NCBI GenBank assembly: GCA_965204535.1 | Contig: CBDBEV010000001.1 | Span: forward strand, 128,001-192,000 | Origin: a bacterium | GTDB taxonomy: Bacteria > UBA8248 | DNA length: 64,000 nt | Direction of reading: 5' to 3' | In this document: positions 18,781-21,090 of the stretch, one piece after another | How the letters are laid out: every line of letters starts with the position of its first letter | Numbering within the stretch: the stretch's first letter is position 1 | Notes under the pieces: generated by a model | What the model saw: only the letters and a program-made list of their open reading frames with translations | Told to the model about the DNA's origin: nothing | Database searches by the model: none | Program-made: the position numbers and the translations under genes

Positions 18781-19608
18781 ATGAGCAAACAAGTTTCCTT
18801 AAAAGATGCCGCATCACTCATCGAAAATGGAGACGCGATCAGTCCCGGCGGAACCTTATTGCACAGAACACCCGCCGCCCTCATCCGCGAAATTGCGCGC
18901 GCGGGTCTTCGGGACCTCACGCTCATCAAGCCGTCTCCCGGTTACGACGCCGATCTCCTTTGCGCCGCAGGCGCCGTGAAGAAAATCATCAGCGGCATTG
19001 TTACATTCGAGGCGGAATTCGGATTGGCGCCTCACTATCGAAAGGCGATAGAGAAAGGAATGGCCGGCCTCACCGAGCATGCCTGAGCCAGCGTGCTTGC
19101 TGGGCTGCGGGCCGCAGCCTACGGCGTTCCCTTCCAGCCCATTCGCGGATTCGATGGGAGTGATATCCCCGAACAAAGCGGCATCTTCACGATTGAAGAC
19201 CCCTACACGAATGAGGAACTCTATGCGATTCCCGCCCTCAAGCCGGACTGGGCGTTGATCCACGTCCAAAAATCAGACCCTCAGGGAAACGCGCAAATCC
19301 TGGGCAATCAGCAATTCGACGTTGAAATGACGCGCGCGGCGCAAAAAGGGGTCATTCTCACGACCGAGAAAATCGTAGACTCCGAAGAAATCGCAGCGGA
19401 ACCGGAGAGAACCACCATCCCGAGTTTTCTCGTCAAAGCAGTCGTGGAAACGCCGGGCGGCGCGTCTCCTTGTAGCTGCCATCCATTTTACGGGGTCGAC
19501 AAAACAGAAATGAGGCGCTACATGACCTTGACCCAAAGCCAGGACGGGCTTCGGGAATATCTGGCGAGTACCGACGAAACACACACACAAGACGCGGTGA
19601 CGAAATAA
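18781..19608 (+). CDS. Family I CoA-transferase-fold alpha subunit (GctA/IpdA-like) with in-frame UGA at codon 102; candidate selenoprotein
   Basis: ORFs 18781-19086 and 19093-19608 share a frame and are separated only by TGA(19084-86)+GCC AGC; homology is continuous (AAAYGVPFQP, PALKPDWALIHVQKSDPQGN, GGASPCSC). Confidence 0.8.
19087..19125 (+). promoter_or_regulatory. Putative bacterial SECIS element
   Basis: Stem TGGGCTGCG (19101-09)/CGCAGCCTA (19113-21); G-first apical loop with 23 nt between it and the UGA. Confidence 0.65.
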
Positions 19609-19610
19609 CG

Positions 19611-20363
19611 ATGGGCAACCGCCTGGCCTCGTTGCCCGAGTATGTGATCCGCGCTGGAAACCAGATGGCCGTAACGCTCTCGCGCCTCATCGAAGACGGC
19701 GAGAATGTGTTTCACGGGGTCAACTCCCCGCTTCCCATGGTCGCGATCTTCTTGGCCAAGAAACGACATGCCCCCAACTGCTCGCTCATAGAAGTCGCGG
19801 GCTCGGTGGACCCCAAACCACGCTTCATGCCGAACAGCACGGCCGACCCTGAACTCTGCCATGGTGCGGCTTCTATGTTCTACAACCCGGATATGTATGA
19901 TCTCTTTGCACGCGGCGGGGTGGACTTCGCTTTTCTGGGTGCTGCCCAACTCGACAAGCAGGGCCGAGCCAACTTGAGCTATATAGGCGACCCGTTCCAC
20001 CCGAAAGTAAGGCTCCCAGGCGGCGGGGGAGGCGCCGTTATCATGCCGCAGGTGAAACGAACCGTCATATGGCGAACAGTTCACGACAAACGATTTCTCG
20101 TACCTAGGGTCGATTTCTCGACGCAGTCGGGCAATCTGAGCCACGTCGTGACACCCATCGCCTTGTTCGAGAAAAAACCCGCCGGGCTCGAGATCGCCAG
20201 CGTTCACCCTGGCCACTCGATGGATGAAGTGGTCGAGAAAACAGGCTTCGACCTGGAGCGCCCGAGCATTGTGGCGCAAACTCCTGCGCCAAGCGCCGAA
20301 GAACTGAGCGCCCTGGAGGAGCTCGATCCGGATGGTGTGCGATTTTCGGAATTCCGTGTATAA
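19611..20363 (+). CDS. Family I CoA-transferase-fold beta subunit (GctB-like)
   Basis: HAPN, FLGAAQLDKQGRAN, RLPGGGG, RFLVPRVDF, ASVHPG, TGFDL. Confidence 0.88.
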   Translation: MGNRLASLPEYVIRAGNQMAVTLSRLIEDGENVFHGVNSPLPMVAIFLAKKRHAPNCSLIEVAGSVDPKPRFMPNSTADPELCHGAASMFYNPDMYDLFARGGVDFAFLGAAQLDKQGRANLSYIGDPFHPKVRLPGGGGGAVIMPQVKRTVIWRTVHDKRFLVPRVDFSTQSGNLSHVVTPIALFEKKPAGLEIASVHPGHSMDEVVEKTGFDLERPSIVAQTPAPSAEELSALEELDPDGVRFSEFRV

Positions 20364-20448
20364 ATCGCAGGCCTTCAAAGAGAATATGAGCACTCCATTC
20401 GCCACTTGACGCCGACGTATTTGGAGACAACGGATTGCGGAGAATTTC

Positions 20449-21090
20449 ATGAGCAACGAATTGTTAAATCGCTTGGGAAGCTATTCGACCTGTCAGGCGG
20501 CGGACGCTTTTGACAAACTGAAAATCAGGGGCCACATGCCCGACATCATCCTGTTATCGCCCGACCCGGAATACCGGATGGTGGGCGAAGCCCACACCGT
20601 TCGAATGGTACCCGCCGGTGGCGGCCCCCTGCCCAAGCGCGAGGTGCACCACATCGACGCGGCGCCCGAGGGGAGCATCGTTGTCATCAGCATCCCGCCC
20701 GGTGTCACGACAGCCAACTGGGGCGGGATGATGAGTACGCGGGCGAAGGTGATGAACCTCGGAGGAGTCGTTCTTGACGGCAGGGCCAGAGATATCGAGG
20801 AACACCGCCAGATGGGGTTTCCCGTGTTTGCCAGAGGAGTGTCTGTTCACGGCAGCGGCGGATATACGGTCCCCATAAGCGTTGGAGAGCCGATCAATTG
20901 CGGGGGCGTCGCGGTGAGGCAGGGAGACGTCATTCTGGGAGACGTCAACGGCGTGGTCGTCATCCCCAGTGAAAGACTCGAGGAAGTCATCGACAAGATG
21001 GATGAACTGGCGGAAATCGAAGAAAAAATTACCGCGGAACTGGAAAAAGGCGTGAGCATCGGCGAAACATTCGCCAAGTATCGAGGCTAG
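20449..21090 (+). CDS. RraA family protein (HMG/CHA aldolase-like)
   Basis: WGGMMS, GVVLDGRARD, GDVILGDVNGVVVIP. Confidence 0.9.
   Translation: MSNELLNRLGSYSTCQAADAFDKLKIRGHMPDIILLSPDPEYRMVGEAHTVRMVPAGGGPLPKREVHHIDAAPEGSIVVISIPPGVTTANWGGMMSTRAKVMNLGGVVLDGRARDIEEHRQMGFPVFARGVSVHGSGGYTVPISVGEPINCGGVAVRQGDVILGDVNGVVVIPSERLEEVIDKMDELAEIEEKITAELEKGVSIGETFAKYRG

Follow-up and report, generated by a model that had tools for sequence, protein, structure and literature searches.

A selenoprotein on the CoA-transferase fold, predicted to cleave acyl-CoA thioethers reductively

The window, a stretch of 64,000 nucleotides from a bacterium of lineage UBA8248 (assembly GCA_965204535.1, contig CBDBEV010000001.1, positions 128,001 to 192,000), contains adjacent genes for the alpha and beta subunits of a protein with the fold of family I CoA transferases. 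The alpha gene carries an in-frame TGA, which we assign to selenocysteine (Sec), and the beta subunit lacks the catalytic Glu of that family. Judged from the pathways that surround its relatives, the pair is, with fair probability, an enzyme that reductively cleaves the C-S bond of 2-(alkylthio)acetyl-CoA. The features of the pair are the following.

18781..19608, + strand: alpha subunit with the GctA/IpdA/AibA fold, 275 residues with Sec102 (open reading frame with a single in-frame TGA; structure model)
19084..19086, + strand: in-frame TGA read as selenocysteine, in the column of IpdA Glu105 and the GctA active-site Gln (alignments, conservation, ratio of nonsynonymous to synonymous substitution rates (dN/dS), covarying hairpin)
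19102..19119, + strand: selenocysteine insertion sequence (SECIS) hairpin with stem GGCTGCG, loop GGC and stem CGCAGCC, in codons 108-113, starting 16-17 nt past the TGA
19611..20363, + strand: beta subunit with the GctB/AibB fold, without the catalytic Glu and with the PGGGGG loop retained (sequence comparison)
19791..19793, + strand: codon of Glu61, a lineage-specific Glu one residue before Val62 (alignment)
19794..19796, + strand: codon of Val62, in the column of GctB Glu54 (alignment)

The in-frame TGA and its hairpin

The alpha frame contains one TGA only, at codon 102, in the context TEHAUASVLAGLRAAAYGVPF. We are highly confident that this codon stands for selenocysteine, and on comparative evidence Sec is almost certainly inserted there. 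The TGA is retained in 20 of 22 genomes of the same genus and in one of two of the same family, the latter at 66% identity. The dN/dS ratio is 0.09-0.31 upstream of the TGA and 0.04-0.15 downstream, well below 1 on both sides, so purifying selection acts on either side of the codon. In 120 database homologues, column 102 is Cys in 84, Glu in 22, another residue in 6 and a gap in 8, the gapped sequences being C-terminal fragments that start after this column. All 22 orthologues have identical DNA at codons 108-113, whereas 4 of 89 comparable codons in the rest of the gene are invariant in this way. In five loci of other phyla, one hairpin base pair has undergone a compensatory change that alters two amino acids. 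A stem of at least 5 pairs starting 14-20 nt past column 102 was found in 63 of 64 TGA genes versus 23 of 122 Cys genes. The source genome encodes selA, selB, tRNA-Sec (selC) and a selD that itself has an in-frame TGA. A TGA aligned to Cys, a downstream SECIS hairpin and all four sel genes thus place the alpha subunit among selenoproteins. In selD (C2:846402), the TGA is likewise followed by a short hairpin similar to that of alpha.

Folding energy compared with shuffled sequences was uninformative (SECIS z about 0), and the comparative evidence decided the SECIS assignment; nor did the presence of selA discriminate, being found in 20 of 25 Sec-type and 18 of 25 Cys-type genomes. Both results, together with TGA being the most frequent stop codon of the source genome, speak for a genuine stop or a sequencing error in a pseudogene or split gene, but we give that explanation almost no weight, since 21 other genomes share the TGA, purifying selection acts on the sequence either side of it, the same codon is TGA across several phyla, and a covarying hairpin and full Sec machinery accompany it.

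Fold and active-site columns

The AlphaFold model of alpha has a predicted local distance difference test score (pLDDT) of 94.9, and Foldseek gave template modeling (TM) scores of 0.89 to both IpdA and GctA and 0.86 to AibA, with IpdA as the top match. In an ungapped alignment, U102 falls on the Glu of the IpdA motif REMDEGM, the very column that is Ala in a PDB chain titled E105A. This bears out the first-pass annotation of this DNA in placing Sec at the column of Glu105, the catalytic Glu of IpdA. The column holds Gln in GctA and Gly in AibA. The beta frame reads HAPNCSLIEVAG around its catalytic column, where Val62 corresponds to Cys56 of AibB and Glu54 of GctB. None of the 160 beta subunits encoded beside a Cys- or Sec-type alpha has Glu at this position (Ile in 88, Val in 67, Leu in 5), and the annotation's claim of a missing beta Glu therefore holds. 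It had also given the GctB motif as HAPN-x-x-x-x-x-ESG; the column was right, but the HAPN part was not, GctB reading YAPDCHIIVESG.

Glu54 is the essential residue of the transferase, and no transferase activity was seen with IpdAB, where that residue is absent (PMC5380842). The loss of the beta Glu supports the earlier suggestion that the pair is not a classical ping-pong CoA transferase. Nor does Glu61 stand in for Glu54: the residue before the Glu column is Asn in 112, Glu in 25, Thr in 17 and Ser in 6 of the 160 betas, and Glu61 was rejected as a substitute catalyst. In alpha, four residues (Arg29, Glu77, Arg87 and Glu99) do not vary across the 185 sequences. Two residues were considered as a resolving Cys and neither was assigned: Cys233 is present in 160 of the 185 alphas and absent from 25, but also occurs in GctA and AibA, and Cys231 is variable.

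These features set the pair apart from GctAB, IpdAB and AibAB. With GctAB (glutaconate CoA-transferase, PDB 1POI, family I) it shares the alpha/beta fold, Pfam PF01144 and the two-gene layout, but GctAB depends on beta Glu54, where the pair has Val62, and has Gln where the source alpha has Sec. With IpdAB (COCHEA-CoA hydrolase; PDB 6CO6, 6COJ and 6CON) it has in common the two-subunit Gct fold (TM 0.89), the lost beta Glu and a functional residue in the same alpha column, while it differs in sequence (~32% identity), in having Sec or Cys instead of Glu105, and in context, IpdAB belonging to a steroid setting and no steroid genes being found among the neighbours scanned. The Cys/Sec alphas do not group with IpdA-like sequences; they form one clade with a Shimodaira-Hasegawa-like approximate likelihood-ratio test (SH-aLRT) support of 99, separate from the proxies P0100 and P0113, with at least four Cys/Sec changes on the tree. 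Such repeated exchange fits thiol redox chemistry. Both trees were quick searches without bootstrap in which proxies stand in for IpdA and GctA, and the first omits 15 same-genus loci. AibAB (3-methylglutaconyl-CoA decarboxylase, PDB 5MZW), whose chemistry is of the enolate type, also lacks the beta Glu, and AibB is the best PDB sequence match of beta; it differs in having Gly at alpha column 102, where the pair carries a nucleophile, Cys at the beta Glu column, where the pair has none, and no redox partner.

Precedent for the proposed chemistry comes from other folds. The reaction of 2-ketopropyl-CoM reductase/carboxylase (2-KPCC) passes through a mixed-disulfide step, and glycine reductase (GrdA/GrdB) uses pyruvoyl activation rather than a CoA thioester. 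Both 2-KPCC and MTXu-5P methylsulfurylase carry out thiol-dependent reductive cleavage of a thioether beside a carbonyl (PMC9457059, PMC6302742, PMC5893883), and GrdA/GrdB a Sec-dependent reductive removal of a 2-substituent that gives an acetyl unit, with recycling by a thiol reductase (PMC13188914). All differ from the pair in fold: 2-KPCC is a flavin disulfide oxidoreductase with a Cys pair and the methylsulfurylase a cupin, both acting on ketones with neither CoA thioester nor Sec, and the product of GrdA/GrdB is acetyl phosphate. We propose that alpha/beta may work in the manner of 2-KPCC and glycine reductase on the scaffold of IpdAB and AibAB.

Gene neighbourhoods and the predicted reaction

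All ten Bacillales loci examined have, immediately upstream of the alpha/beta pair, genes for a class II aldolase, an acylating aldehyde dehydrogenase, a CoA-disulfide reductase (CoADR), PduL, EutN and shell proteins, and for MtnA and MtnK as well where the stretch extends far enough; Acetoanaerobium has the same methylthioribose microcompartment locus. MtnK, MtnA and Ald2 lead to dihydroxyacetone phosphate (DHAP) and methylthioacetaldehyde (PMC10986504, PMC5893883), from which the acylating dehydrogenase would yield methylthioacetyl-CoA. Our literature search found no description of this MtnK/MtnA/class II aldolase microcompartment locus (L150-L160, L274). A class II aldolase of this type occurs in 17 of 401 genomes, and the six whose locus has no alpha/beta, one of which ends at a contig edge, also have no acylating dehydrogenase or PduL there. 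Three loci (L242-L244) show MtnK-MtnA-aldolase-CoADR without microcompartment genes or alpha/beta; they may be deletion relics or reflect a separate role of CoADR with methylthio products.

A second setting is the coenzyme M (CoM) alkene cluster. All four such clusters, on plasmids (Nocardioides JS614, Mycolicibacterium NBB4 twice, Xanthobacter Py2), encode a pair with Cys at column 102 and Gly at the beta Glu column, along with an acyl-CoA ligase, one or more short-chain dehydrogenases/reductases (SDRs), a single-Cys CoADR-like gene and CoM biosynthesis genes. Three of the four adjoin alkene monooxygenase genes, and a MetE-like gene in two is presumably the epoxyalkane:CoM transferase. CoM opens epoxides to hydroxyalkyl-CoM (PMC9457059); with ethene as the starting alkene, subsequent oxidation and ligation would lead to CoM-S-CH2-CO-CoA.

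Clostridial Sec loci have HdrA/B/C-like genes in seven of eight cases and a CoADR-like gene in the eighth, and a classical CoA transferase lies in the same stretch in six of them. In 22 control loci of the classical Glu type, by comparison, HdrB, HdrC and CoADR were found in none, a distant HdrA-like match in one and a TrxB-like gene in two. In betaproteobacterial operons, genes for an acyl-CoA ligase and a class III CoA transferase lie together with a crotonase-like gene and TctC, and 12 of these loci include a thiol dioxygenase of the 3-mercaptopropionate type. In one Bacillales locus the Cys enzyme is accompanied by a classical CoA transferase and an ABC transporter of the Met type, another locus has TrxB directly upstream of alpha, and Chloroflexi-like loci have a class II aldolase near the relatives.

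The shared activating enzyme, the predicted R-S-CH2-CO-CoA and the disulfide reductases of unrelated families make C-S cleavage the simplest reading. The Gct fold is reused for thioester-enolate chemistry in IpdAB and AibAB, and Sec suits thiol-exchange steps. In the mechanism we envisage, a separate enzyme would first make R-S-CH2-CO-SCoA, R being methyl in the methylthioribose loci and CoM in the ethene loci. The Sec102 selenolate, or the Cys thiolate of homologues, would then attack the thioether sulfur, and the acetyl-CoA enolate would leave, stabilised by the oxyanion site of the fold and subsequently protonated, with the invariant Glu77 as a candidate for this step. Free CoA or another thiol would attack the enzyme-Se-S-R adduct to give a mixed disulfide such as CoA-S-S-R, CoA being suggested as the releasing thiol because no conserved resolving Cys was found in the alphas, and a disulfide reductase would free R-SH. 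We consider C-S cleavage likely for the family as a whole, and rather probable, if somewhat less so, for the copy in the source genome. The pair could then be the Sec form of a new class, acyl-CoA thioether reductive lyases on the CoA-transferase fold, with the reaction R-S-CH2-CO-CoA + CoA -> acetyl-CoA + CoA-S-S-R. Such a class would account for the conversion of carboxymethyl-CoM into acetyl-CoA by bacteria that degrade ethene and vinyl chloride, for the formation of methanethiol and acetyl-CoA in the methylthioribose microcompartment, and for a heterodisulfide that bacterial HdrABC could reduce, a broader proposal on which we are evenly divided.

Two genes flank the pair in the window.

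18034..18546, - strand: AhpD/CMD-family CxxC protein, divergent, a candidate thiol reductant (open reading frame, family match; adjoins alpha/beta in 18 of 19 same-genus loci)
20449..21090, + strand: RraA/HMG-aldolase-like gene, co-oriented, its link to the pair limited to its own genus (open reading frame, family match)

The divergent AhpD-like gene is present as the first-pass annotation had described it; it fits redox C-S cleavage, and AhpD may conceivably serve as the reductant of the source-genome copy. Among 179 Cys/Sec loci, RraA (19), AhpD (18) and a UxaA-like gene (18) are confined to the genus of the window, and RraA and UxaA-like genes were rejected as conserved partners.

Several observations weigh against C-S cleavage. 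A thiol reductase lies in the stretch of only 38 of the 179 loci, and of 20 of 160 outside the window's genus; 60 of the 179 stretches are shorter than 8 kb. The clostridial and Bacillales sets each represent one inherited operon and not many events, the enzymes of the CoM clusters branch as a clade of their own, apart from the main Cys/Sec clade, and CoADR is kept in three of the six aldolase loci without alpha/beta. The source genome (95.7% complete) gave no match to MtnK, class II aldolase or acylating dehydrogenase, and none to CoADR or HdrB over the cut-off; it does encode MtnA and TrxB, as well as a protein that matches the Chloroflexi-like loci's ligase at 59%. AhpD, with about a dozen paralogues in this genome, is weakened as a reductant, and it is not found beside the sister-lineage orthologues.

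It is unlikely, in our estimate, that the pair is still a CoA transferase, working without a covalent Glu by the direct anhydride route known from family II CoA transferases or through an acyl-Cys/Sec intermediate, and activating thioether acids that another enzyme cleaves. The fold and the CoA-site motifs are indeed retained, and CoADR, given its persistence without alpha/beta, could merely keep CoA reduced. However, the loci already encode an activating enzyme (ligase, acylating dehydrogenase or Glu-type CoA transferase), the neighbouring flavoproteins do not have the CxxxxC pair that cleavage of the 2-KPCC type needs, and IpdAB, without the beta Glu, had no transferase activity, as noted above.

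Slightly less likely again is the model of the first-pass annotation, in which Sec or Cys, as a base or by accepting the acyl group, brings about C-C cleavage of the retro-Claisen type, hydrolysis or acyl transfer and feeds the adjacent RraA. The shared column with IpdA Glu105 and the rank of IpdA in the fold search favour it, as do the aldolases repeatedly encoded close to relatives (RraA in the window, class II enzymes in the Bacillales and Chloroflexi-like loci) and some families in Table 1 of PMC13188914 in which Sec replaces a non-redox nucleophilic Cys. The supply of RraA found no support, as the gene is restricted to one genus and is not beside sister-lineage Sec orthologues 65% identical to the source alpha. 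Acyl or C-C chemistry also leaves the HdrABC/CoADR neighbours and the CoM operons unexplained, and the recurrence of disulfide reductases and thioether pathways is better accounted for by redox C-S cleavage. In the methylthioribose loci the aldolase acts before a two-carbon acyl-CoA is formed, which has no bond open to retro-Claisen cleavage, and a selenolate is a poor base.

Attack at carbon, in the style of glycine/betaine reductase, is improbable: Sec would displace a 2-substituent (thiolate, halide or amine), and the carboxymethyl-selenoether would be reduced by thiols to acetyl-CoA. This route, too, needs a disulfide reductase and favours Sec, and the window's own context yields no sulfur substrate, so that the source copy may use a non-sulfur substituent; but the anchored contexts (methylthioribose, CoM, Met-type transporter, thiol dioxygenase) all point to sulfur. 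Attack at carbon and attack at sulfur are not separable by sequence.

If reductive C-S cleavage is correct, the route of CoM-using bacteria from ethene and vinyl chloride to acetyl-CoA, of which we know no settled account, becomes testable, as do the substrates of some bacterial heterodisulfide reductases. Methylthioacetaldehyde of the DHAP shunt could then yield methanethiol without a nitrogenase-like enzyme; the R. palustris enzyme for the methylthioacetaldehyde step is named as unknown in PMC5893883. These questions could be addressed with cultured strains and Cys-type enzymes, and many genes labelled glutaconate CoA transferase would need re-annotation.

Spread of the family and other genes

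Among the best 80 of 441 GTDB matches, with 83 alpha genes, column 102 is TGA in 51 and Cys in 32; in 102 further loci it is Cys in 90, TGA in 13 and another residue in 8. Records with a Sec form carry the labels Nitrospinota, Methylomirabilota, Chloroflexota or Betaproteobacteria, and others belong to the Bacillota sample. Of 50 plasmid matches 9 were examined, six of Cys type and three not (His, Glu, Ala). As far as the inventory shows, this would be a selenoprotein family of several phyla and the first on the CoA-transferase fold. It is missing from the table of 119 selenoprotein families in the 2026 inventory PMC13188914 (section 7 compared), alpha matches no NCBIfam selenoprotein model, and the main text of BSepDB does not mention a CoA transferase. 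The literature search, which did not extend to the primary ethene-pathway papers, found no report of this selenoprotein or of the proposed reaction. Those papers reportedly may already propose carboxymethyl-CoM-CoA as an intermediate, with different gene roles. Gene callers split the alpha genes of the family in two.

The source genome has two further pairs (C2:682880-684456 and C2:1211351-1212935), one a Cys-type paralogue whose beta has Ile in the Glu column, the other a classical His/Glu pair. In sister-lineage loci (L052:5119-7549, L053, L055, L222, L240) the order is alpha(Sec)-beta-alpha(Cys) and then a gene for a small CoA-binding protein; the stretch shows a single beta, and upstream come RidA-like and SDR genes. 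Certain Cys-type pairs (L184, L187, L204, L212, L217 and similar) have a divergent acyl-CoA ligase, whose second PDB match is 6IHK, which we take to be DmdB, and a downstream class II aldolase. Clostridial operons (L131:1329-5400, L269) contain the HdrB and HdrC genes in duplicate and one for a short HdrA (~340 residues), and in genome G359 the Hdr set lies beside a classical CoA transferase, the Sec pair being elsewhere with a CoADR-like gene. The conserved crotonase-like protein of the betaproteobacterial operons (L094:12886-13608 and 20 similar) seems to be without the usual catalytic Glu residues, and might desulfinate or decarboxylate. Thiodiglycolate was considered as a betaproteobacterial substrate and dropped, the literature searched, including the compared part of PMC6061509, giving no support; likewise, the compared text on the Variovorax thiodipropionate pathway names no Gct-type pair.

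Short pieces of a relative's alpha, beta and RraA, 90-99% identical, are present in one RNA-library run (share 0.06); none of them crosses the TGA, and they do not demonstrate transcription. Elsewhere in the window, positions 16176-17992, convergent with AhpD, encode a [2Fe-2S] ferredoxin and a split pair of SAF and UxaA/GarD-type dehydratase, which resembles SuyAB sulfolactate sulfo-lyase; in locus L047 this set is ~4 kb more distant. A gene that we presume to encode an M16-like peptidase (pieces 11442-13532 and 15203-16012, minus strand) is interrupted by a presumably transposase-like frame at 13547-15031, where relatives have a single open reading frame of ~930 residues.

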